The notes beneath the pieces were generated by a model, which saw only the letters and a list, made by a program, of their open reading frames with translations, was not told the origin of the DNA and did not search any database. Shown here one piece after another: positions 2,189 to 38,626 of a stretch of 58,263 nucleotides of DNA (positions within the stretch are counted from its first letter, which is position 1; every line of letters starts with the position of its first letter). Origin of the DNA: Anaerolineales bacterium (lineage in GTDB: Bacteria; Chloroflexota; Anaerolineae; Anaerolineales; E44-bin32); contig JBFFQB010000004.1 of assembly GCA_041573795.1 (NCBI GenBank), positions 1 through 58,263 of the forward strand. Reading direction: 5' to 3'. The position numbers and the translations under genes were made by a program.

Positions 2189-2460
2189 AAAGGCATCGAC
2201 GGAGAAAAGTAGGCGAGTGGAGTTCGCCAGAGAGGCCGGGGCATGGCTGCAACCCTGGCTCGAGTGAGGCTCGCTGAAGTTCCCTCCTGAGCCGCCCGGG
2301 GGAACGTCCTGTATGGGCTGGTAGTTCGGGCCGGCACCCTGCCGTTATCAACAGGGGACCGATCGTCACGTTAACATGACTGTCGGCTTGAGTGGACCAG
2401 AAGGTCAAAAAGGGTGGTACCACGGGAGAAACCCCGTCCCTTATTGGGGCGGTTTTTTGT
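2189..2460 (+). promoter_or_regulatory. T-box riboswitch, Phe specifier
   Basis: Stem I AGAGA and GCTG motifs; specifier GAAG-TTC (TTC = Phe at 2280-2282); T-box AAGGGTGGTACCACGG at 2410-2425; terminator CCGTCCC/GGGGCGG followed by a T tract; directly upstream of pheS. Confidence 0.92.
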
Positions 2461-2504
2461 TAAATGGATGTACGCCGAATGCTGGGATGCATGAAGGAGG
2501 CGAA

Positions 2505-3530
2505 ATGCTGGAAAGATTGGATCAGATTGAGGATCAAGCGCTCAAGGATCTTGAAGCTGCAGACAATGACGACAAGCTTCAGGAATGGAAAGTGCGTTAT
2601 CTTGGTCGATCGGCCGAGCTCGGCACCATCACAGAGAAGATCCGCGAAATGCCGAAAGAGCAGCGGCCTGCTCTAGGGAAGCGGGCTAATGAAGTGAAGA
2701 CACGCTTGGAGGCGGGGTACCAGGCGCGAGCGGAGATCCAGCGGCGAGAACAGCTTGATCGGCAGCTGCAGGAAGAGCAGCTGGATGTAACCCTGCCAGG
2801 TAGGAAATTAGCGTTCGGTCGCATCCATCCTTCCAATCAGATGCTGCGCAGGATCAACGCCATCTTTGCCTCGATGGGCTTCCAGATCTATCGCTCACGC
2901 GAGGTGGAGACCGACGAGTACAACTTCGAATTACTGAATATGCCTGCCTTTCACCCGGCGCGAGATGAATGGGATACGTTTTATACAACCGATCAAGATG
3001 TCTTGCTGCGGACCCATACCTCCCCCGGGCAAATTCATGTTATGCGTGAAAGAGCCCCTGAGCCAATCCGCGTGATTCTCCCGGGAATGTGTTATCGCTA
3101 TGAGCAGATCACTGCGCGGTCCGAGATTCAATTCAATCAAGTCGAGGGATTGGCCGTCGGAAAGAGCATCACCTTTACCGACCTTAAAGGGACACTGGTC
3201 GCATTTGCGCACCGGTTGTATGGGGATGAAGTACGCACGCGCTTTCGAGCGGGGCACTTTCCCTTCACCGAGCCCTCGGCCGAGATGGATATCGAATGTT
3301 TTATTTGTGACGGAGAGGGTTGTGCAGTATGCAGAAGATCGGGATGGTTAGAAATCCTGGGCTGTGGGATGGTCCATCCGCGCGTGCTGGAAGCCGGGGG
3401 TTATGACCCGCAGGCGGTGACCGGATTCGCTTTTGGCATGGGACCAGAGAGAATCGCCATGAACATCCATCGTATCGAGGATATCCGCTACTTCTGGGCC
3501 AATGATCTGCGCTTCCTTGAGCAGTTTTAA
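2505..3530 (+). CDS. pheS: Phenylalanine--tRNA ligase alpha subunit
   Basis: HPARD, LRTHTSP, FPFTEPS and GFAFGMGPER motifs; RBS AAGGAGG before ATG 2505. Confidence 0.98.
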   Translation: MLERLDQIEDQALKDLEAADNDDKLQEWKVRYLGRSAELGTITEKIREMPKEQRPALGKRANEVKTRLEAGYQARAEIQRREQLDRQLQEEQLDVTLPGRKLAFGRIHPSNQMLRRINAIFASMGFQIYRSREVETDEYNFELLNMPAFHPARDEWDTFYTTDQDVLLRTHTSPGQIHVMRERAPEPIRVILPGMCYRYEQITARSEIQFNQVEGLAVGKSITFTDLKGTLVAFAHRLYGDEVRTRFRAGHFPFTEPSAEMDIECFICDGEGCAVCRRSGWLEILGCGMVHPRVLEAGGYDPQAVTGFAFGMGPERIAMNIHRIEDIRYFWANDLRFLEQF

Positions 3531-3568
3531 CACGGAACAAGAACGATACCGAATTTGAGGATACAACA

Positions 3569-6127
3569 ATGAAAGTACCAGTCTCATGGCTGAAAGAATT
3601 CGTCGAACTTGAGCTTTCCATCCCGGACCTGGCTCATAGGCTAACCCTGGCTGGCATGGAGGTTGAGGAAATTCGTTATGTAGGCTTTCCCTTGCCACAG
3701 GGCGAGGTCGATCCGGTAACGGGACATACACGCAGTATTGGCGCCAACGTGAGCGGTCTGGCCTGGGATCCAGAAAAAATTGTCGTAGGAGCTATCCTGG
3801 AGGTAATGCCCCATCCAAATGCCGACCGTTTGGTGCTCTGCCGCCTGGATGATGGTGATCAGGAACATCGCGTGCTTACTGGCGCTCCCAATCTATTCCC
3901 TTTCAAAGGCCAGGGTCCACTTGAGATCCCATTGAAGGTAGCCTATGCGCGCGAGGGTGCAACACTCTACGACGGCCATAAGGAGGGCTGGGAACTATTC
4001 ACACTAAAGCGAGCCAAGATTCGAGGCGTGGAATCCTACTCGATGGCTTGTTCTGAAAAGGAACTGGGGATCTCGGAGGAGCATGAAGGGGTGATTCTGC
4101 TTGATAGAGATGCGCCTGTCGGCGTTCCACTGGTTGAGTACATGGGCGACATCGTGCTCGACATCACGCTAACGCCTAACCTCGCCCGTAACGCCAATAT
4201 CCTCGGTATAGCACGCGAGGTCTCGGCACTCACAGGTGCCCCCCTGCTGGAGCCTTCCTACGAGGTGCCCTGGAAAGGACCGGCGATAAAGGGACGTGTC
4301 GAGTTGGAGATATCAGAACCCGAACTCAATCCACGCTTCGTCTTGGGCTTGATTGAGGGGATTGAAGTGGGTCCCAGCCCGTACCATGTTCAGCTTCGTT
4401 TGCAATTGGCGGGTATGCGCCCCATCAATAATGTTGTCGATGCAACCAATTACGCCATGTTGGAGATTGGTGAGCCCTTACACGCCTTTGATTATGACGT
4501 GCTGGTTGAGCGTGCCGGCGGTAAGGTGCCCACGATCCTCACCCGTCGGGCGAAGAAAGGTGAGAAGCTAACCACATTGGATGGGGTTGAGCGAGAGTTA
4601 GATAGTTTCACCGTTCTGGTTGCTGATAAAAGCGGTGCACTCTCCATTGCTGGTGTCATGGGCGGCGCCGAATCAGAGGTGAGCGAGTCTACACAGCGTG
4701 TTTTGTTGGAAGGGGCGGCCTGGAATTTCATCAATATCCGCAGGACCGTTGCGGCGCAAGGGCTCCATTCTGAAGCCTCCTACCGCTTCGAGCGCGCCGT
4801 TCATCCGGCGATGGCAGAGCGTGGGGTTCGACGCGGCTTGGTATTTATGCAAAATTTCGCTGGGGGGGAGATTGCTGCAGGGTTGGTCGATGCCTACCCA
4901 CAACCCCATGAACCCTCAATCGTCAGCTTTGGGGGCGAAGAGGTCGAACGCTGGTTGGGAATCAGCCTGGAATTGCATGAGATCGAGGTAATACTATCAA
5001 GTCTGGGATTTGACGTACAAGTCAAGGACAACACCCTTAAGGTTACCTCACCTGACCATCGCCTTGATATCGAAGAGGGTATCGTTGGTGTGGCAGATCT
5101 GATGGAAGAGGTAGCGAGGATTTACGGGTACGATCGCATCCCTGAGACGATGATCGCTGACCAAATCCCCCCACAGTACAGTTTGCCAAGACTGGAAGCA
5201 GAAGAAGGCATACGGGATTTTCTTGTCAGTCTGGGTTTGCAAGAGATCGTGACCTATCGCTTAACCACACCCGAACGCGAAGCTCGCTTCTTACCTCCTG
5301 GGGAGGCGCCGGATGATCGCCCTTACGTGCGATTAGAGAATCCGATTAGCGCTGACCGGGTTGTGATGCGTCATAGCCTGTTGGCGAGCTTGATGGAGAT
5401 CGTTGAGAGCAATGCTCGTTTCCAGGATCGATTGACGCTGTTTGAGATCGGGCCAGTTTATTTAGGCGCTGAAGGTGAGCGGCTTCCCGACGAACCCTTG
5501 CGCCTGGCAATTATTCTAACGGGACCGCAAAGGTTTTCGCATTGGTCTGGTCAAAGCCGGACATGGATGGATTTCTTTGACCTGAAGGGGGTCCTTGAAG
5601 CTTTGTTTGAAGATCTCCACCTTGGCGCCTACCAATTCAAGAATGCCACCCATCCAAGTTTTCATCCGGGGAAATGCTCGATCATGCTTGTGAAGGGGCA
5701 ACAGGTTGGTGTGATGGGAGAGCTACATCCTTTGGTCAAGGATCGATACGACCTGAATGCATCCCCGGTCGTAGCAGCCGAACTGGATCTGGAAGCTATT
5801 CTCTCTATGCTTAGCGACACCGTGACGGTCAAGCCGGTAAAAGCTTTCCCCCCGGTTCTCGAAGATCTGGCCTTCGTCGTCGATGAAACCATCAGCGCAG
5901 AGCAAGTCGCGATCGCAATTCGCAAAGCCGGTGGAGAGCTACTTGAGGCGGTAAAGCTATTTGATGTGTATCGCGGGGAGCAAATTGGGGAGCACCAGAA
6001 GAGCCTGGCCTTTGCGCTGACCTATCAGGCAGCTGATCGTACGCTAACAGACGAAGAGGTGGGCAAGCTGCGTCAAAAGGTGATTTCGCTGTTGGAGAAA
6101 GAACTGAGCGCCAAGCTCAGAGCTTAA
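3569..6127 (+). CDS. pheT: Phenylalanine--tRNA ligase beta subunit
   Basis: MKVPVSWLKEFV, HPNADRL, RPINNVVDATNY, EEVARIYGYD, FDVYRGEQI; follows pheS. Confidence 0.98.
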   Translation: MKVPVSWLKEFVELELSIPDLAHRLTLAGMEVEEIRYVGFPLPQGEVDPVTGHTRSIGANVSGLAWDPEKIVVGAILEVMPHPNADRLVLCRLDDGDQEHRVLTGAPNLFPFKGQGPLEIPLKVAYAREGATLYDGHKEGWELFTLKRAKIRGVESYSMACSEKELGISEEHEGVILLDRDAPVGVPLVEYMGDIVLDITLTPNLARNANILGIAREVSALTGAPLLEPSYEVPWKGPAIKGRVELEISEPELNPRFVLGLIEGIEVGPSPYHVQLRLQLAGMRPINNVVDATNYAMLEIGEPLHAFDYDVLVERAGGKVPTILTRRAKKGEKLTTLDGVERELDSFTVLVADKSGALSIAGVMGGAESEVSESTQRVLLEGAAWNFINIRRTVAAQGLHSEASYRFERAVHPAMAERGVRRGLVFMQNFAGGEIAAGLVDAYPQPHEPSIVSFGGEEVERWLGISLELHEIEVILSSLGFDVQVKDNTLKVTSPDHRLDIEEGIVGVADLMEEVARIYGYDRIPETMIADQIPPQYSLPRLEAEEGIRDFLVSLGLQEIVTYRLTTPEREARFLPPGEAPDDRPYVRLENPISADRVVMRHSLLASLMEIVESNARFQDRLTLFEIGPVYLGAEGERLPDEPLRLAIILTGPQRFSHWSGQSRTWMDFFDLKGVLEALFEDLHLGAYQFKNATHPSFHPGKCSIMLVKGQQVGVMGELHPLVKDRYDLNASPVVAAELDLEAILSMLSDTVTVKPVKAFPPVLEDLAFVVDETISAEQVAIAIRKAGGELLEAVKLFDVYRGEQIGEHQKSLAFALTYQAADRTLTDEEVGKLRQKVISLLEKELSAKLRA

Positions 6128-30572: not shown

Positions 30573-32348
30573 TTAGCGTGGCTGACCAAGTTTCAAACGC
30601 TCTTGATCAATAATTTCTTCATCCAGCTTGGGGAACAGTGGGTCGGGTTGTAATAATGCCTGACCGGGCGCGAGTTGGCTGGGTTGCCAGCGCCCTCGCG
30701 CATTTGTCCCATCATAGACAAGCGCTTTATGGGACCGCTGCTCCTCTTGAAAATTCTCGATGCGCAATTCGCCAAAGAGTTGATCTTGATAACCAAGAGT
30801 CCGGTGGAGTTGCTCTGAGCTGAAGGGTAAGAATGGCGAAAAAAGGGTTTTGAGCGAATCGATCGCCTTGAGGGCAGTGTAGACTGTGGTCGCGGCCTTC
30901 AGTGGATCATCCTTGATCACGCTGAACCATGGAGCCTGATCGAGGTAGGCGTTGGCTTCGCGCGCCAGTGCAAGGGCTTCATTTAGCGCGGCCCGTAAAT
31001 TAACTGCGGAAAGTTTCTCGCCCACTGTTCCGAATCCCGCCTCCATTTTTTCAATCAATTCCTGGTCTTCCGGCCGTAAATCTCCCGGCTGCGGTACCAC
31101 ACCCTCCCAATGCTTATAGGCAAAGGACAAGACTCGGTTGGCGAGGTTGCCCCACGCGGCCACAAGCTCGTCGTTGTTGCGACGGACGAATTCAGACCAG
31201 GAGAAATCGCTATCGCGTGCTTCTGGCATCGCTGCGGCGACATAGAAGCGGATCGCATCCGGGTGGTAGCGCTCGAGGATATCCGGCAACCATACTGCCC
31301 AATTGCGACTCTTACTGAACTGCGCCCCTTCGATGTTCATGAATTCATTGGCTGGTATGTCATAGGGTAGGTTCAAAGGCCGGTTTTCCGGTTCATCGTA
31401 GATGCTCTTGATGCCCAATAGCTCGGCCTGCCAGATCACTGTGTGGAAGGGGATGTTGTCCTTGCCAATGAAGTTGAAGATCTTAGCCTGGGGGTTGAAC
31501 CACCATTCCTTCCAGGCTTCGGGCTGACCGATGTTGTGAGCCCATTCAACTGAGGCGGTGAAGTAGCCCATTACGGCCTCAAACCAGACATACAGGCGCT
31601 TGGTATCCCAACCGTCAAGCGGCACTGGGACACCCCACTCAACGTCGCGCGTGACCGGACGTCCTTTCAACCCGCCCTCGATGAAGTTGCGGGCGAAGTT
31701 GATCACGTTCGGTCGCCAGGTAGCCCCCTGTCGTTCAAGATAGGCGAGCAGTTCATCGGTAAAGGCTGGCAGATCGAGAAAGAAGTGCTCCGTTTCACGC
31801 ACGATTGGTTTGCTGCCATCGGTTTTACTGCGGGGATTAATCAGTTCAAGAGCATCTAGAAGATTACCGCAATTATCACATTGATCCCCTCGGGCTTCCT
31901 CGTAACCGCAGATCGGACAGGTCCCTTCAACGTAGCGATCTGGTAGAAATCGATCTTCGGCTTCAGAATAGAGCTGCTGTTGCGTTTGACGGTAGAGGTA
32001 CTCGTTTTCGTAAAGGCGAGTAAAGAAGTCTTGTGCTATGCGATGATGATTTTCGGTGTCCGTATGTGTAAATAGGTCGTAGCTAATCCCGATGCTTTGC
32101 TGTGCCTCCAGAAAGCGCTGATGATAAAACTCGAATAGCTCACGCGGAGACTTGCCCTGTTTATCGGCTTCAACTGTGATTGGCGTACCATGCGAATCAG
32201 ATCCAGATACCATCAGAACACGGTTGCCTCTCAGGCGATGATAACGAGCGAAGATATCCGCCGGCAAGTAAGCTCCAGCCAGGTGGCCAACATGCAGATC
32301 CCCATTGGCGTAAGGCCAGGCTACAGAGACATGGATGATTTCAGTCAT
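30573..32348 (-). CDS. metG: Methionine--tRNA ligase
   Basis: AWPYANGDLHVGH, Zn knuckles CPIC/CDNC, GKDNIPFH, FSKSR; no C-terminal dimerisation domain. Confidence 0.98.
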   Translation of the reverse strand: MTEIIHVSVAWPYANGDLHVGHLAGAYLPADIFARYHRLRGNRVLMVSGSDSHGTPITVEADKQGKSPRELFEFYHQRFLEAQQSIGISYDLFTHTDTENHHRIAQDFFTRLYENEYLYRQTQQQLYSEAEDRFLPDRYVEGTCPICGYEEARGDQCDNCGNLLDALELINPRSKTDGSKPIVRETEHFFLDLPAFTDELLAYLERQGATWRPNVINFARNFIEGGLKGRPVTRDVEWGVPVPLDGWDTKRLYVWFEAVMGYFTASVEWAHNIGQPEAWKEWWFNPQAKIFNFIGKDNIPFHTVIWQAELLGIKSIYDEPENRPLNLPYDIPANEFMNIEGAQFSKSRNWAVWLPDILERYHPDAIRFYVAAAMPEARDSDFSWSEFVRRNNDELVAAWGNLANRVLSFAYKHWEGVVPQPGDLRPEDQELIEKMEAGFGTVGEKLSAVNLRAALNEALALAREANAYLDQAPWFSVIKDDPLKAATTVYTALKAIDSLKTLFSPFLPFSSEQLHRTLGYQDQLFGELRIENFQEEQRSHKALVYDGTNARGRWQPSQLAPGQALLQPDPLFPKLDEEIIDQERLKLGQPR

Positions 32349-32389
32349 AATGAACCTCGTTCAGCAGGAGTGATGGAAACCTTTACGGC

Positions 32390-32418
32390 AAAAGAAACCG
32401 CCAGCTTGAGGCTGGCGG
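32390..32418 (-). terminator. Attenuator terminator in the metG leader
   Basis: Minus strand CCGCCAGC-CTCAA-GCTGGCGG-TTTCTTTT, about 40 nt before the metG ATG. Confidence 0.8.
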
Positions 32419-32444
32419 GAGTAAGCTGCCGGGGCAAATTGCGA

Positions 32445-32540
32445 TCAAGCGCATCTGGCCCGAGCCGATGAGCCTCGCTCCATCGGCGACGGCAGACAAC
32501 ACATGACCATTGGAAGGCTACGAACGAGAAGCGGTTTCAC
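32445..32540 (-). CDS. Putative metG leader peptide (31 aa)
   Basis: GAGG RBS, GTG start, MKPLLVRSLPMVMCCLPSPMERGSSARARCA*; lies between a promoter and the terminator. Confidence 0.55.
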   Translation of the reverse strand: MKPLLVRSLPMVMCCLPSPMERGSSARARCA

Positions 32541-32572
32541 GTAGACCTCGAATCTTTTCGTCGATGGTTTGT

Positions 32573-32600
32573 ATTCTACACTGTGCCGATACCAAGTCAA
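32573..32600 (-). promoter_or_regulatory. Sigma70-type promoter for the metG leader
   Basis: TTGACT-N16-TAGAAT. Confidence 0.65.
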
Positions 32601-32615
32601 GCAGTTGGCGCCGAA

Positions 32616-32954
32616 TCAGGGAAGATAGCCATCTGCCCGTGCCGCAAAGACGAAATCAGCTTCACTGAGACCACCGATACTATGGGTCCAAATCGTCAGC
32701 GTCACTTTACCCCAGGTGAGGCATAGCTCAGGGTGATGATCGACCTCTTCGGCCAAAGCACCTACTTTATTGGTAAAGTCAAGCGCCTCCTGGAAGTCCT
32801 TGAATGAATATGTTTTTTGAAGGTGATGGTCATCAATCAACATCCATTCCTGTCCCAGCATGGCGTATAACTCGGCCAAAGATTGTCCTGTAAGGGCGCG
32901 CTGGCCTTCACCTCGAGGGGGTACTAGCTCGCGCTGAGCTAACTCGCTCATCAT
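32616..32954 (-). CDS. Pterin-4-alpha-carbinolamine dehydratase
   Basis: FKDFQEALDF, AEEVDHHPEL, WTHSIGGLSEADF. Confidence 0.93.
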   Translation of the reverse strand: MMSELAQRELVPPRGEGQRALTGQSLAELYAMLGQEWMLIDDHHLQKTYSFKDFQEALDFTNKVGALAEEVDHHPELCLTWGKVTLTIWTHSIGGLSEADFVFAARADGYLP

Positions 32955-33028
32955 TCACTCCTGTAAGCTAAGATCAAAAGGATTGTATCAGGCCGCTCTA
33001 ACGTTGGCGGGTCATGGCTCTGGGGAGG

Positions 33029-34897
33029 CTAGGCTTTGCCGCGGATGGCTTCGATGATCTCAGCAGCCATATCATAGCGGCTGAAAGGGGGCATGAGGTA
33101 GACACCTTGGACCATGGTGGAGAGAGCGTCGAAGAGCTCAATCGCTACTTGAATACCGGTCTTAGGCGCATCATCCCCCGCCTTTTCTATCCGGGACAGT
33201 ATTGGGTCAGGGATTTGAATGCCCGGTACTTCGTGGTGCAGGAAAGATGCATGGCGGGCGTTGTAGAGCGGTAGCAAACCAACCAGAATCGGCAGATGTA
33301 GCTCCCCGAAGCGAGCCTCATAGGTCTCTATAAACTTAGCAGCCAGTTCAGGCTCATACACTGGTTGGGTCAAGGCGAAGCTCGCCCCGGCTGCAAGCTT
33401 CTTCTGCAACAACTGCATCTCCCGATCGAGATCCTGTGCACACAAATTAAGAGCACAACCAGTGAAAAATGAGGTTGCTTCTCCAATGTCACTCCCGGCA
33501 TGATCGACACCCTGGTTGAATCCCTGTTGAATCAATTGAATCAGTCCAGTCGGCACCAGGTCGTAGTCATCCATGGCATCAGGGTAATCGCCGATGGCGG
33601 TGGGATCCCCCATGACAACAAATACGTTGCGAACACCAAGCGCATGAGCGGCGAGCAGGTCGCCCTGGACGCGCAGCAAGTTGCGCCCGCGAGTGGGAAA
33701 GTGCAAAACGGTCTCTAGGCCAACCTGCGACTGGATCAATTGGCAGACTGCCCAGGGACTCATACGCATGCGTGCCATCGGGCTATCGGCAACGTTGATG
33801 ACATCAGCGCCGGCTTCGGCTAGTAAACTGGCGCCCGCCAGCAGCTTGTGTGTGGAGAAGCCGCGCGGTGGATCCATTTCGACCGATATGACGAGACGAT
33901 CTTCTTCAAATAAACGCGCTAACTTCGTTGGTGGTTCACTGGAAGCGGAGGGTGTGGTGCTGATCACTTCGAGGTCAAGGGCTTCAGGTTCAAGGCAAAC
34001 CCCCTCGCCTTCATCCAGTGCCTGGCGCATTGCAGCGATATGATCGGGCGTGGTCCCACAACACCCGCCAATAAAGACCGCGCCGGCCTCGCAAAAGGAG
34101 CGGGCATAATCGCCGAAATACTCAGCGGTTGCGGGGTACATGATGCGACCCGATACGCGCTCGGGCCAACCGGCATTGGGCATGACTGCATAGTGTGCCT
34201 GGGGAGCAGCACTCCGCATCAACGATAGGATCCTTAGGAGTTGCGCCGGCCCACTTGAACAATTCGCACCGATGATGTCTACACCTAATTCGCTTAATGT
34301 TCGGGCGACATGCTGGGGAGAATCGCCCAGGAGCGTACGGTCGTCACGGGTGAAGGTTAGCGTCGCCACCACGGGCAGCTGGCATACCGCTCTAGCGGCG
34401 CGTACCGCTTCCGCTACCTCATGCAGGTCGGTTTGTGTCTCAACCATCAGTAGATCGCTCCCTGCTTCTGCAAGGGCTTCGATCTGTTCCCTAAATGCGT
34501 CGAAGGCCTGCTCAGGTTGTACCCGACCAAACGGGGCCAGGCGTACACCCAGGGGCCCGACGCTGCCAGCAATCAGGATGGGTTTGAAGGATGCCTCAAC
34601 GGCGCGTTGAGCTAGTTTGACAGCTGCCTGGTTGATCTCACGCACCTTATCTTCCAGGCCATGGGCGCTGAGCTTGTAACGATTCGCGCCGAAGGTGTTT
34701 GTCTCGATGATCTGTGCGCCGGCACTAATATATTCCTGATGAATCTCGGCGACGAGGGCGGGCTGTGTCAGGTTAAGTTCATCAAAGCAGGCATTAAAGG
34801 AGACACCGCGGCTGTGGAGCATGGTGCCCATGGCACCGTCGGCCAGGATGATGCCATCCTTTTCAAGCAGCTCTTGGAGGAGATCGGGGTTTGCCAT
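33029..34897 (-). CDS. yitJ: Bifunctional homocysteine S-methyltransferase / methylenetetrahydrofolate reductase
   Basis: DGAMGT, GANCSSGP, GGCCGT; C-terminal MTHFR motifs VEMDPP, NVADSPMARMRM, TQPVY. Confidence 0.93.
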   Translation of the reverse strand: MANPDLLQELLEKDGIILADGAMGTMLHSRGVSFNACFDELNLTQPALVAEIHQEYISAGAQIIETNTFGANRYKLSAHGLEDKVREINQAAVKLAQRAVEASFKPILIAGSVGPLGVRLAPFGRVQPEQAFDAFREQIEALAEAGSDLLMVETQTDLHEVAEAVRAARAVCQLPVVATLTFTRDDRTLLGDSPQHVARTLSELGVDIIGANCSSGPAQLLRILSLMRSAAPQAHYAVMPNAGWPERVSGRIMYPATAEYFGDYARSFCEAGAVFIGGCCGTTPDHIAAMRQALDEGEGVCLEPEALDLEVISTTPSASSEPPTKLARLFEEDRLVISVEMDPPRGFSTHKLLAGASLLAEAGADVINVADSPMARMRMSPWAVCQLIQSQVGLETVLHFPTRGRNLLRVQGDLLAAHALGVRNVFVVMGDPTAIGDYPDAMDDYDLVPTGLIQLIQQGFNQGVDHAGSDIGEATSFFTGCALNLCAQDLDREMQLLQKKLAAGASFALTQPVYEPELAAKFIETYEARFGELHLPILVGLLPLYNARHASFLHHEVPGIQIPDPILSRIEKAGDDAPKTGIQVAIELFDALSTMVQGVYLMPPFSRYDMAAEIIEAIRGKA

Positions 34898-34901
34898 GGC
34901 A

Positions 34902-37900
34902 TCATTCTCGCATGAGCTGTTCAACCCGGCTCACGCCAACGTTGAAATACTTCGCCTGTGGGTGATGTACGATGATCGCCGCGGTCGACTGTTCCGGGAT
35001 CAGTTGAAAGGCAGGAGAAAGGCTCATTCCCAGCGCTTCCTCAGCTGGGAGCAGGTGGAAGACCTTGGCGTGATCCTCTAACTCCGGGATGGCGGGATAA
35101 CCCCATGAATAGCGTTTGCCCTGATCGGATTGAAGCTTTAATTCTCGGCGGATGTGGCGATGGAGGTACTCGGCCGCTGCTTCTGCAGTCTGGACGGCAA
35201 GTCCATGGGTGAAATACGACTCGCTGTAATCGTCGCTTGTTTGAAGTTCATCGAAGCGTTCTGTTGCTTCCTTTCCCACACTTACTACCTGCAGGGCGAG
35301 GACATCGAACTCCCCAGAATCGAGCGGGAGAAAATAATCAGAAAGACAAAGACCCTCGCCGCTTATCTGGCGTGGGAATGAAAAGCGCACAAGCTCCTGT
35401 GGCTCTCCCTGGATCGTGTCAGGATCGAAGACAAGTAGATCATTTCCTTCGGATACAGCAGGCCAGTAGCCATAAACGCCATGGGGTTTTAACCAACCTT
35501 CGTTTAATGCCTGCCGTTGCATCTGCTCCAGGCGTGTCTCATATTCTTTTCGCAACCGATCCCAATCCTCGCCATGTGTATTCTTGGCGCCCCATGAAAG
35601 ACGGAAGAGCTCGTTCTTGGCCAGGTGCTGGAAGACCGCCTCGAGCGGCATGCGTTCGACTATATGGGGACCCCATTGCGGCGGTTGTGGAATTTGCTGT
35701 GCCGGCATGATTTGCGCCTTACGGCTGACCGTTGCTGTGCCACCCTGATCTTTTTGGATCTCTCGCTCAGCCTGCTGCAAGCGATCCTGAAGCAAGGATT
35801 CCCGTCGTGTTTCGTCCTGAAGTTGGTCCATCACATCCAGACCCTCAAAGGCATCTTTACAGTAGAACACGCCACCACCATAAGGGGTATTCTCTTCAGG
35901 GAAGAGGATGCGTCGGCCAAAGCGGCGGTTGATCGCGGCACCCCCGATGAGAACGGGAATTTGCAGGTCTCGTCGATGGAGCTCATTCACGATCAATGGC
36001 ATCTGCTTACTGGTACTCACGAGCAAGGCGCTCAACCCGATTGCATCCGCTTCCCATTCGATGGCGGTGTCGATGATCAGGTTGGCAGGGACCTGTTTCC
36101 CCAGGTCCTGTACCGTGTAGCCATTGTTGGAAAGAATCGTTTTCACCAGGTTCTTACCGATATCGTGTACATCGCCGTAAACGGTGGCCAGCACAACTTT
36201 ACCCTTGCTGACCCCTTCCTGCACATCAAGGTAGCCTTCAAGGTGGGAGACGGCTAGCTTCATTACCTCGGCGGACTGCAAGACGAAGGGCAGGATCAAT
36301 TCGCCGGATCCGAACTTGTCGCCGACTTCCTTCATTGCCGGCAGGAGAACGGAGTTGAGTACCTCGACAGCTCGGGCCGACTGCTCTTCTGGCCCTGCGG
36401 TGGAAAGGAGCAGATCGATACCCTCCGGCACGCCCTCCTTATGGCGATGAACGATACTCCAATGTAGTCGTTCGGCAGGTGACATTCCTGCGGTGGGATC
36501 ACTGGCGCTATCAGTGGGTTCAAGCGTCACCGATTCGAAGTGTTCGATCAGTTTTTGCAAGGCCTCTGGATGGCGATTAAAGATTAGGTCATCAACCAAC
36601 TTCTGTTCCTCAGGCGGAATTTCTCCATAGGGTGTGATGTGCGCCGGATTGACAATGGCCATATCCAAGCCGGCATCGACACAGTGGTGAAGCATGATGC
36701 TGTTAAGAACACGACGAGCCTGTGGACTGAGTCCAAACGAGACATTCGAGACGCCCAGAGATGTTAGCGTGCCTGGTAGCGCAGCTTTGATCTGGCGGAT
36801 GCCCTCAATCGTCTCGATGGCCGAATTTTCATACTCCGGATCACCCGTGGCGAGCGTGAAAGTCAACGCATCAAAGATCAAATCTTCTGGTTCGAGACCG
36901 TACTCCGTGACCGCAATGCTGTAGATTCGCTGGGCGATCTCGAGCTTGCGCTGGGCGGATTTCGCCATGCCCTCCTCATCGATGGTCAAGGCGATCACGG
37001 CTGCCCCGTGTTCTTTAGCCAGGGTAAGGACGCGATCTAGTTTTTCGCGACCGGCCTCCAGGTTTACGGAGTTGAGCAAGGCGCGACCCGGGTTGATCTT
37101 AAGGGCGGCTTCCATCACTTCGGGTTCAGTCGTGTCAATCACCAGGGGCGCTTCGACTGTCATGGCCAAACGATGGATGACCTCGGCCATCATCTCAGGC
37201 TCATTGCTGCGTTCTGTCAGGGCTACGCAAATGTCGAGAACGTGGGCGCCCCCTTCGATCTGATCACGGGCAAGTTCGACAATGGCATCGTAATCCTCAG
37301 CCAGCAAAAGGCGTTTGGCGCGGCGCGAGCCCTGTGTGTTGATGCGCTCACCAATGAGTAAGGGTCGCGGCTCTTGATGTAAGGGAACACTGCGAACGGC
37401 TGAGCTAAGATGTGGCGGGTGATGTTCTGGCCGTGGTGGGCGCTCATGCTGGCCGACTGCTTCGACCAGCAACTTGAGGTGCTCTGGTGTGGTCCCGCAG
37501 CAACCACCGACAACGCCAACGTTATACTTCTCGACAAACTCGAGCATATCCTCTTTGAAAGGTTCTGGCTCGAGTGGATATACCGCCTGTCCGTCGACGT
37601 TGAGGGGTAATCCAGCGTTCGGGATACAGGACACAGGCAAGGTGGCGTTTTCTCCCAGAAAGCGGATTGGTTCGCGCATGTGCTCGGGGCCGGTAGAGCA
37701 ATTTAATCCTACAAGATCGATGGGCAGGCGCTCGAGAATATTCAACGCGGCACCAATATCGGTGCCCAACAACATGCGCCCTGAAGTGTCGAGAGTCACC
37801 TGGGCTTGGATCGGAAGGCTTTTTCCGGCCTGCTCGAAGGCTTGCTGAAATCCCTGGATGGCAGCCTTGACTTCGAGGATATCTTGGGAGGTCTCGATGA

Positions 37901-38405
37901 GCAGCAGGTCAGCGCCTCCTTCGATTAGACCGAGTGCTTGTTCGGCAAAGATATCCACCAGTTCATCGAAGCTGATATCGGAAAGGTCGGGGTCGTTGGC
38001 TGAAGGTAGTTTTCCAGTGGGTCCGACAGAACCTGCGACAAAGCGCGGTTTTTCGGCAGTAGCGTATTCATCTGCCAGGTCGCGTGCTAACCGTGCTGCC
38101 GCAACATTAATGGCGTGAACTTGATCTTCGAGAGCATACTCACCAAGGGTGATGCGGTTTGCACGGAATGTATTGGTCTCGATCACGTCAACACCGACGT
38201 CGAGGAATGATCGATGGACGCGTTCTACCGCCTCGGGTTTGCTGATCACCAGGTGGTCGTGGCAGCCTTCGAGGTGGTCCCCGCCAAAGTCCGCTGCTGT
38301 CAGTTCTTGGGCTTGCAGACTGGTTCCCATGGCGCCGTCAAATACAAGCACTCGCTTCTCAAGTGCGTCAAGATAGGCTCGGTGGGTGATCTCACGCTGC
38401 TTCAA
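34902..38405 (-). CDS. metH: Cobalamin-dependent methionine synthase
   Basis: GGCCGT, IGERIN, GDVHDIGKN (B12-binding), reactivation domain SWGYP...PEQST. Confidence 0.97.
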   Translation of the reverse strand: MKQREITHRAYLDALEKRVLVFDGAMGTSLQAQELTAADFGGDHLEGCHDHLVISKPEAVERVHRSFLDVGVDVIETNTFRANRITLGEYALEDQVHAINVAAARLARDLADEYATAEKPRFVAGSVGPTGKLPSANDPDLSDISFDELVDIFAEQALGLIEGGADLLLIETSQDILEVKAAIQGFQQAFEQAGKSLPIQAQVTLDTSGRMLLGTDIGAALNILERLPIDLVGLNCSTGPEHMREPIRFLGENATLPVSCIPNAGLPLNVDGQAVYPLEPEPFKEDMLEFVEKYNVGVVGGCCGTTPEHLKLLVEAVGQHERPPRPEHHPPHLSSAVRSVPLHQEPRPLLIGERINTQGSRRAKRLLLAEDYDAIVELARDQIEGGAHVLDICVALTERSNEPEMMAEVIHRLAMTVEAPLVIDTTEPEVMEAALKINPGRALLNSVNLEAGREKLDRVLTLAKEHGAAVIALTIDEEGMAKSAQRKLEIAQRIYSIAVTEYGLEPEDLIFDALTFTLATGDPEYENSAIETIEGIRQIKAALPGTLTSLGVSNVSFGLSPQARRVLNSIMLHHCVDAGLDMAIVNPAHITPYGEIPPEEQKLVDDLIFNRHPEALQKLIEHFESVTLEPTDSASDPTAGMSPAERLHWSIVHRHKEGVPEGIDLLLSTAGPEEQSARAVEVLNSVLLPAMKEVGDKFGSGELILPFVLQSAEVMKLAVSHLEGYLDVQEGVSKGKVVLATVYGDVHDIGKNLVKTILSNNGYTVQDLGKQVPANLIIDTAIEWEADAIGLSALLVSTSKQMPLIVNELHRRDLQIPVLIGGAAINRRFGRRILFPEENTPYGGGVFYCKDAFEGLDVMDQLQDETRRESLLQDRLQQAEREIQKDQGGTATVSRKAQIMPAQQIPQPPQWGPHIVERMPLEAVFQHLAKNELFRLSWGAKNTHGEDWDRLRKEYETRLEQMQRQALNEGWLKPHGVYGYWPAVSEGNDLLVFDPDTIQGEPQELVRFSFPRQISGEGLCLSDYFLPLDSGEFDVLALQVVSVGKEATERFDELQTSDDYSESYFTHGLAVQTAEAAAEYLHRHIRRELKLQSDQGKRYSWGYPAIPELEDHAKVFHLLPAEEALGMSLSPAFQLIPEQSTAAIIVHHPQAKYFNVGVSRVEQLMRE

Positions 38406-38445
38406 TTAGAACTCTCCTGCGTGTGCTATTCACGCCATGGCGAAG

Positions 38446-38626
38446 AAAAACCTCTTCGTGGAAGAAGAGGCTCGACGTGGACTCACGTGCTTCCTCTCAT
38501 CTTCCAGACGGTTATGCTCGCCGTATAACCTTCTGCCGGAGTTGGCACCTTCCGCCTTGATGATCTACAAGGACAAGGGTTGCCGAGGCTTCTTCGGGCC
38601 GGTCCCTCCGCCTCTCTCGATGAGTA
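38446..38626 (-). promoter_or_regulatory. SAM-I (S-box) riboswitch with terminator
   Basis: Minus strand CTCATCGAGAG..GGAGGGACCGGCCC..GGCAACC...GGTGCCAACTCC...GAAGATGAG, then CCTCTTC/GAAGAGG-TTTTT. Confidence 0.95.

Follow-up and report, generated by a model that had tools for sequence, protein, structure and literature searches.

The question raised by positions 32390-32600 of the 58,263-nucleotide (nt) stretch of Anaerolineales DNA analysed here (contig JBFFQB010000004.1; the whole stretch is called the window) is how the gene directly downstream, metG, which encodes methionyl-tRNA synthetase (MetRS), is controlled. The initial annotation had read this leader as an attenuator in which a ribosome stalls on the methionine codons of a short leader peptide. 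Comparison with relatives supports the core of that proposal, since Met codons 11 and 13 of the leader open reading frame (ORF) are kept in all 19 leaders of the window's genus and ATG clusters are enriched across the order. On these sequence comparisons we consider it probable that the leader is a classical ribosome-mediated attenuator that senses the charging of Met-tRNA and controls metG.

All of the leader elements lie on the minus strand, in the 267-nt gap between the pterin-4a-carbinolamine dehydratase gene (32616-32954) and metG (30573-32348), and coordinates are those of the window. The promoter, ribosome-binding site, 31-codon upstream ORF (uORF), hairpin, GAGGCT/AGCCTC pair, terminator and metG that had been reported are each found where the initial annotation placed them. 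A sigma-70-type promoter-like site (32573-32600) consists of TTGACT (32600-32595) and TAGAAT (32578-32573) separated by 16 nt and agrees with the consensus at 10 of 12 positions; TTGAC-N17-TAGAAT is visible too in the upstream sequences of genus relatives. The Shine-Dalgarno-like GAGG (32546-32549) stands 5 nt ahead of the GTG start codon at 32540. From there the uORF (32445-32540; MKPLLVRSLPMVMCCLPSPMERGSSARARCA) runs for 31 codons (32540-32448) to a TGA stop codon (32447-32445). Met codons 11 (32510-32508) and 13 (32504-32502), in the run ATG GTC ATG (32502-32510), form the proposed stall site. Two Cys codons, TGT TGT, follow as codons 14 and 15, and a third ATG (codon 20, 32481-32483) lies within the 5' strand of a hairpin, P2 (32464-32487; GCCGATGG/TCATCGGC), with eight pairs and an 8-nt loop.

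The loop and 3' strand of P2 contain GAGGCU (32471-32476, codons 22-24), the candidate 5' strand of an antiterminator (region 2); as DNA, GAGGCT (32476-32471) is the exact complement of AGCCTC (32413-32408). The latter, AGCCUC in the transcript, comprises the last three bases of the 5' arm of the intrinsic terminator and the first three of its loop. The terminator (32390-32418) is a stem-loop (32418-32398; CCGCCAGC/GCUGGCGG) of eight pairs, seven of them G-C, with a stability of -15.3 kcal/mol; it is followed by TTTCTTTT, the U tract occupies 32397-32390, and the stem plus UUUCUUUU spans 32418-32390. About 50 nt farther on, metG starts with ATG at 32348 behind a GAGG of its own (32358-32355), and its 591-amino-acid product has Pfam matches to tRNA-synt_1g (E 1.9e-146) and Anticodon_3 (E 1.2e-14).

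The 19 genus leaders, taken from upstream regions of metG found by genome search, were assembled into alignment A1. The start-codon column of the uORF reads [AG]TG in all 19, the 27-nt spacer behind it varies in sequence and holds no indel and no in-frame stop in any leader, and ATG-GNC-ATG is invariant, as is the terminator stem. A start codon, a variable but indel-free spacer and fixed Met codons are, as read from the alignment, the pattern of a translated leader in which the peptide sequence is irrelevant. A purine-rich stretch is seen by eye ahead of the start-codon column in most, not all, of the genus relatives.

Two details of the initial annotation fare less well. It had described a Met/Cys leader; the methionine half stands, but Cys codons occur at codon 14 in only two of the 19 leaders and at codon 15 in only two, codon 14 being mostly Arg CGY in the others. 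It had also listed a third Met codon, codon 20. This codon is GTG in two leaders, L017 and L018, in which the opposite strand of P2 carries a compensating U-to-C change (pair 73:88 is AU in 17 leaders and GC in two), and because of this exchange across the helix it is probably structural, not regulatory. Viewed more broadly, many families have YGY, either Arg CGY or Cys UGY, as the codon after the second Met (32499-32501), a conservation at the level of bases, and this codon perhaps pairs with the GCGC just ahead of the uORF stop codon.

The survey was extended to the order, where metG was mapped in 147 of 151 genomes and 80 further upstream regions were fetched, with at least one per genus; one genome was taken from each of 70 genera. 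A terminator was accepted if its stem had dG<=-10, was accompanied by at least five U in eight positions and lay 15-260 nt before metG; ORFs were considered if they stop at the terminator or within 160 nt before it, and ATG codons were counted per 8-codon window. By these rules 59 of the 70 genera have a terminator upstream of metG, and among the 59 there are 35 with at least three ATG in eight codons and 52 with at least two. When every other sense codon was put through the same procedure, the next most frequent, CGC, reached three or more in 8/59. In 200 dinucleotide shuffles the class with at least three ATG averages 1.28 and never exceeds 5, and that with at least two averages 14.3 and reaches 23 at most, so that ATG clustering across the order is 27 times that of shuffles. 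Leaders with at least two clustered ATG are spread over many families (f1 7/7, f9 6/6, f14 7/7, f16 6/7, f11 5/6, f5 5/6, f7 4/5, f10 3/4), some leaders have six to eight Met, and the predicted peptides include runs such as MMAVMMMVMRM.

Several of these relatives (L024-L029, L066, L067 and others) have, by eye, the ATG of the uORF 6-11 nt after a -10-like hexamer, and their leader ORFs may be carried on leaderless mRNAs, judging from this spacing.

Outside the order the element thins out. Among leaders from 40 other families of the class, at least three ATG together with a terminator occur in only two, roughly two others seem genuine on inspection by eye, and no terminator at all is present in 21 of the 40 families. 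Named public records related by MetRS sequence have at least three ATG in 25 of 77 leaders and at least two in 45; the positive records are labelled Anaerolineae, Anaerolineales, Anaerolineaceae, Aggregatilineales or Phototrophicaceae, and in this set of 77 there are none among the leaders labelled Actinomycetes, Gaiellaceae, Dormibacterota or Caldilineales.

The window alone would not have sufficed. The 1.2 kb scanned contain three promoter-like sites against 1.0 ± 0.9 expected from shuffles and one terminator-like site against 1.0 ± 1.0, and the leader fold has z = -1.76, with 6 of 200 shuffles folding equally well or better; taken by itself the window has leader features that are not beyond chance, and their significance comes only from comparison with relatives. 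Counts and a z-score so near the shuffled expectation are what would be seen if an unrelated short ORF and a terminator merely happened to lie upstream of metG. This explanation is already contradicted by the comparative sequence data, namely the conservation in 19/19 genus leaders, the order-wide ATG clustering and the single metG-linked match of a covariance model per genome (described below), and we hold it to be extremely improbable.

A structured RNA is a further possibility. The consensus fold of A1 has a helix P1 (UGCCG:CGGCA) enclosing hairpins P2 and P3, followed by the terminator. P1 joins a 5' strand in codons 16-17 (UGCCG, 32490-32494) to CGGCA (32427-32431; partner positions 32431-32427) by five pairs, with G-U variants in two sequences and one broken; CGGCA(G) recurs by eye ahead of the terminator in family f9 leaders. 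P2 has one pair changed on both sides in two sequences, and one-sided G-U variants at three pairs in one sequence each. P3 (32432-32461) has ten pairs, some of them broken in several sequences, and carries the uORF stop codon in its loop; this helix is uncertain because its 5' strand is paired differently in the consensus fold of a second alignment, A3. Such a three-way junction, closed by a conserved P1, could be a switch that works together with the terminator by binding a small ligand, tRNA(Met) or MetRS itself, the ORF and its ATG codons then being by-products. The unusual sequence conservation of the P2 loop and terminator stem agrees with this, as does the variation of the bases after the Met codons as YGY and not by amino acid (Arg/Cys), which is a constraint at the RNA level. 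Nevertheless, just three of the 31 predicted pairs of the consensus fold are changed on both sides, and an aptamer does not require that a variable spacer remain free of indels and stops.

Known RNA families do not offer a candidate for such a switch. With the Rfam 15 library, cmscan at E<=10 finds no leader family in 32250-32750, nor does a scan of the whole window at the gathering threshold find one in the metG leader, which bears out the initial annotation in that no known riboswitch, T-box or leader family is recognized there; the permissive search of 32250-32750 yields NsiR1 (E 4.4) and Pseudomon-1 (E 9.8) and nothing else, each of them placed on the terminator. The T-box model RF00230 has no match in the metG leader at E<=10, whereas the same model finds the T-box of pheS (2187-2444), and the earlier remark that metG lacks a T-box while pheS uses one thus agrees with the Rfam scan. 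The S-adenosylmethionine (SAM) aptamer models (RF00162 and its clan) have no match in the metG leader either; the model does find 38494-38626, upstream of metH.

Covariance model R1, built from alignment A3 of leaders of the window's type, locates the element precisely. It has exactly one match in the window's genome (32393-32516, minus strand), and a search of 150 genomes of the order yields 31 rows at E<=1e-3, of which 23 lie directly upstream of a mapped metG. The other eight comprise five in genomes without a mapped metG, one opposite-strand duplicate, one at a contig end in a genome where the metG contig is cut, and one (in G096) that does not adjoin metG. The leader is linked to metG alone, and accompanies it whatever the upstream gene is: a pterin dehydratase, the tail of a phosphoenolpyruvate-utilising enzyme or the tail of a sigma factor. 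By family, the matches of R1 are 11/12 in f1, 1/1 in f3, 5/7 in f4, 1/1 in f6, 8/12 in f9 and 2/2 in f13. The three-way junction is limited to these six families, yet other families keep a Met-rich uORF and a terminator in unrelated sequence.

Indeed three terminator types can be told apart among the metG leaders, the RNA sequence differing between family groups. Type A, that of the window, is CCGCCAGCCUC.. (CCGCCAGCC-type, with candidate pairing GAGGC:GCCUC), type B is GGCUGUCC..GGGCAGCC, and type C, found in Aggregatilineales and Phototrophicaceae, is ACCGUCUGUC..GACAGGCGGU. The terminator stem sequence is conserved inside family groups (loci L055-L103 and L152-L193), and each type has its own partner segment within the uORF; what is common to all is the Met-rich uORF and the terminator. 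That unrelated RNA sequences share these two features argues for codon sensing rather than an aptamer. In one leader (L031, genome G041) the 5'-arm motif of the terminator occurs twice (GCCAGCCUCGGGC and GCCGGCCUCGGGC), the copies lying about 35 nt apart and about 90-40 nt before the U tract; this may reflect duplication of the arm or an additional alternative helix.

The same design appears with another amino acid. A blind whole-genome scan for short ORFs with amino-acid clusters ahead of terminators gave as its top match the His-rich uORF MNHHLQHTHCL before hisS (Pfam tRNA-synt_His; G000 contig C2 26166-27736, minus strand, locus L231). The order of elements there is a -10 box TGCTATAAT, an 11-codon uORF with four His codons (1460-1425), a terminator (about 1376-1350) and GGAGG-ATG of hisS (1335-67), and this leader matches no Rfam leader family at E<=1. 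When 41 genera were sampled, 16 hisS leaders with a terminator were obtained, of which six have at least four His in eight codons and none has three or more Met. Met clusters with metG and His clusters with hisS are the signature of cognate-codon attenuation; since hisS leaders repeat the design with His codons, and for the reasons given above, a ligand-binding junction is in our judgement very unlikely to be the explanation.

A second match of the blind scan, a Met-rich frame with four Met in eight codons (G000 contig C5 32460-33322, plus strand), was rejected as an off-frame artefact. It arises where the His-rich C-terminal tail (..EHGHVHDHGAHGH) encoded by the upstream gene is read out of frame, and the gene that follows has no connection with methionine. 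Runs of CAT-GGT-CAT, as in this case, mimic ATG clusters.

In the attenuation mechanism that we propose, transcription would begin at the TTGACT/TAGAAT promoter and a ribosome would translate the 31-codon leader ORF while RNA polymerase nears the terminator. With plentiful Met-tRNA(Met) the ribosome would clear Met codons 11 and 13, cover or unwind the GAGGCU segment and reach the stop codon; the terminator hairpin would then close, and most transcripts would stop before metG. When methionine or MetRS activity runs short, the ribosome would stall at ATG-GTC-ATG. Its leading edge would then cover the 5' strand of P1, and the downstream segment, staying free, would pair with the emerging 5' arm and loop of the terminator, block it and allow metG to be transcribed. 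The net effect would be a negative feedback of MetRS on its own synthesis. The sequences show the uORF, its Met cluster and the terminator, together with their conservation and exclusive link to metG; from the leader's layout and its relatives we infer translation of the uORF, stalling, the identity of the antiterminator bases in the window and the response to methionine limitation. The 5' strand of P1 lies 9-14 nt past the first base of Met codon 13, and from this spacing a ribosome held at Met13 should block P1 and leave P2 intact.

The predicted antiterminator was examined with the stall site set by the ATG-cluster rule and not at the last ATG of the densest 8-codon stretch, which in this leader would be codon 20 and would mask GAGGCU. 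The segment from 13 nt past the Met cluster to the terminator was compared with the terminator 5' arm and loop in 50 genera and in shuffles. The complementarity beats 95% of shuffles in 18 of the 50 genera (2.5 expected) and 99% in five. In all 18 the complementary segment begins inside the uORF or at most 12 nt downstream of the first base of its stop codon, a position that a non-stalled ribosome would mask. Types B and C contain a near-copy of the terminator 3' arm in the 3' part of the uORF, 13-36 nt past the last clustered Met codon. This near-copy shows in the peptide, for example as ..DRR.. in the Aggregatilineales/Phototrophicaceae group.

Folding of transcripts cut before the 3' arm points the same way. 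Pairing of the 5' arm exceeds 70% in 27/50 leaders if the ribosome sits at the Met cluster, compared with 4/50 if it is at the stop codon and 7/50 if the upstream sequence is shuffled (Wilcoxon against shuffled, p = 0.0014). Judged by these predictions an antiterminator is clear in many relatives, and its topology is the classical one, in which a stalled ribosome would free region 2 to capture region 3 and one that continues would mask region 2.

The pairing that the initial annotation proposed for the window, GAGGCT with AGCCTC, has a mixed record. It recurs in relatives: this hexamer complement, specified a priori, is found in 4 of 17 genera of the window's terminator type against 0.79 expected (P about 0.005). 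The best duplex in the window is GAGGCU:AGCCUC extended by two short helices, at -15.1 kcal/mol (terminator, -15.3). By eye, covariation is seen at this pairing in some relatives: L098 has CAGGGC opposite GCCCUG, which amounts to two double changes, L033 has G:C for A:U, and family f9 has the 8-nt GCCGAGGC opposite GCCUCGGC. These were read by eye since the MAFFT alignment A2 (36 leaders) sets GAGGC one column apart in f1 and f9. Leaders L018, L032, L034 and L035 do not fit the GAGGC:GCCUC pairing.

A number of results weigh against attenuation at Met codons, or against the form of it drawn here, and they are collected in this paragraph. The window duplex is no better than shuffles of the G+C-rich segment (p = 0.17), and the longest exact complement to the terminator top is marginal both in genera of the window's type (Fisher p = 0.068) and in the others (0.074). 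The probability of the terminator in the window is 0.99 at equilibrium even with a ribosome at Met13, and in the cut transcript of the window the pairing of the 5' arm is 0.48 compared with 0.64 when the upstream sequence is shuffled, a calculation over nested folds only, with no pseudoknots. Nested folding, in which pseudoknots are outside the model, does not predict the GAGGCU:AGCCUC switch in the window. The terminator is favoured at equilibrium in 41 of 50 leaders, the window included. Within the genus, L018 is without GAGGC in the P2 loop and its frame is shifted and longer, and the uORF of L017 ends inside P2. Across the order the element is scarce in some families (f2 0/4, f15 2/5, f17 1/3), some of the cases with two ATG are probably false, such as L049 and L095, where the frame belongs to the C-terminal end of an upstream gene, and the genera are related, so that the counts of genera overstate independence. 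Finally, the window leader has only two clustered Met codons, and among the 430 candidates with a uORF and a terminator in its own genome it ranks 159th, by virtue of its two Cys codons.

The equilibrium folds bear on a further explanation, that the uORF is translated but acts mainly by other means (translational coupling or re-initiation, Rho, or a role as a small protein), the terminator being constitutive or leaky; the hairpin could, for example, be the end of an upstream metH-pterin dehydratase transcript. A terminator that is favoured at equilibrium for any ribosome position agrees with this, as do upstream genes on the same strand. Set against it are the promoter-like site between the upstream gene and the uORF, the constancy of the leader at metG regardless of the upstream gene, and the position of the terminator, which is after the uORF and 50-250 nt ahead of metG in 59/70 genera. 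The antiterminator complementarity lies where a translating ribosome would mask it in 18/18 significant cases, and outside the Met codons the peptide shows no sequence conservation. We therefore regard this explanation as quite unlikely. As the terminator is favoured at equilibrium in 41/50 leaders, any antitermination must be kinetic; equilibrium folding, in which stalled and shuffled leaders show no difference (p = 0.25), is uninformative for a kinetic switch.

For Met-codon attenuation in the window itself, the location of GAGGCU in the P2 loop means that its pairing with AGCCUC would be a pseudoknot. The antiterminator here may accordingly form when a hairpin loop pairs with the terminator loop as a pseudoknot, in place of a simple competing hairpin.

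Leader-peptide attenuation of this class is textbook knowledge, exemplified by trpL and pheM-pheST. E. coli pheST (pheM) is generally described as, like the metG leader, a synthetase gene behind a short ORF with cognate codons and an intrinsic terminator, under negative feedback from the supply of charged tRNA; it differs in having Phe rather than Met codons and in belonging to the Gammaproteobacteria rather than the Anaerolineae (Chloroflexota), and as the metG leader has no Rfam leader match at E<=10, no relationship in sequence or structure was detected. The trpL leader and those of his, leu, thr and ilv share with the metG leader, in the usual descriptions, a leader peptide, a cluster of regulatory codons and alternative antiterminator and terminator hairpins, and the window leader, with just two adjacent regulatory codons, is in this respect like trpL; trp-type leaders control biosynthetic operons, whereas the window leader would control a synthetase. 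Methionine metabolism and metG are controlled elsewhere by SAM riboswitches, T-boxes and protein regulators. The T-box (RF00230), by which synthetase genes of Firmicutes are usually controlled at the RNA level, performs the same task of converting tRNA charging into terminator read-through, but it binds tRNA directly, while the metG leader would sense it through the ribosome. MetRS charges both initiator and elongator tRNA(Met), so that, if the mechanism holds, initiation and elongation of the leader ORF would both depend on the enzyme being controlled, a coupling not known from other attenuators.

Closer comparisons come from published leaders. A leuL leader is described in PMC5314783. PMC1262725 predicts classical-type attenuators of trpS and leuS in Streptomyces, which are, like the metG leader, synthetase attenuators outside the Proteobacteria and differ from it in amino acid and phylum; the same paper reports no conserved RNA structures upstream of methionine operons in Actinobacteria. 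In mycobacteria, polycysteine leaderless short ORFs are presented in 10.1101/834739 as amino-acid-responsive attenuators, often starting from the mRNA 5' end; these read Cys rather than Met and precede Cys-related operons, and the window uORF by comparison has a 5' leader and a GAGG. The Corynebacterium ilvB uORF (ilvB-II motif), as outlined in PMC11109978 and PMC10272879, has a conserved uORF with cognate codons, a terminator and a complementary antiterminator and was first taken for a riboswitch; it differs from the metG element in its Ile/Leu/Val codons, in controlling a biosynthetic operon and in being confined to one genus, against many families.

The literature searched describes no Met-codon leader and no metG attenuator. 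To our knowledge, neither the survey of synthetase-operon attenuators by Lopatovskaya et al. (2010) nor Vitreschak et al. (2004) lists metG. The class of mechanism is well known, and its Met-codon version at metG is new to the literature searched. We put at an even chance the reading that this is the first attenuator to read methionine codons and a lineage-wide system across Anaerolineae families, with at least three unrelated designs of terminator and antiterminator. If the mechanism is correct, methionine would be added to the few amino acids that classical attenuation reads, and a Met-rich uORF with a terminator before metG would serve as an annotation signature for a large, mostly uncultured lineage. 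Three unrelated RNA designs sharing one codon logic would form a natural data set on the evolutionary rebuilding of attenuators.

Contigs from four RNA-library runs of one study (X1-X4) were also compared with the locus; they are of low depth and carry no information on 3' ends or transcript levels. The leader is joined to the 5' end of metG in two of them: X2 record 11 (32109-32572) and X4 record 18 (32065-32423). These are compatible with read-through transcripts, though carried-over DNA may be their source. Contig limits are not RNA ends, and three were left aside as evidence: X1 is interrupted at about 32340-32474, X3 record 16 ends at 32387, which is 3 nt beyond the U tract, and X2 record 11 ends at 32572, beside the -10 box.

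Immediately before the metG leader, on the same strand, is a methionine cluster (32616-38626). It is headed by a SAM riboswitch found in the Rfam scan (38494-38626), which precedes metH (MetH, 34902-38405), and continues with an ORF that fuses homocysteine S-methyltransferase to methylenetetrahydrofolate reductase (33029-34924) and with the pterin-4a-carbinolamine dehydratase gene (32616-32954), all on the minus strand. Thus metG lies downstream of a SAM-controlled operon but is preceded by a promoter-like site and a leader of its own. Elsewhere in the window, on the plus strand, a T-box leader (2187-2444, 103.6 bits) precedes pheS and pheT, the region of which extends over 2376-6127. One genome therefore holds three regulatory types, a T-box (pheST), leader peptides (metG and hisS) and a riboswitch (metH), and, if the proposed mechanism is correct, Chloroflexota would use ribosome-mediated attenuation for metG and hisS beside T-boxes and riboswitches.

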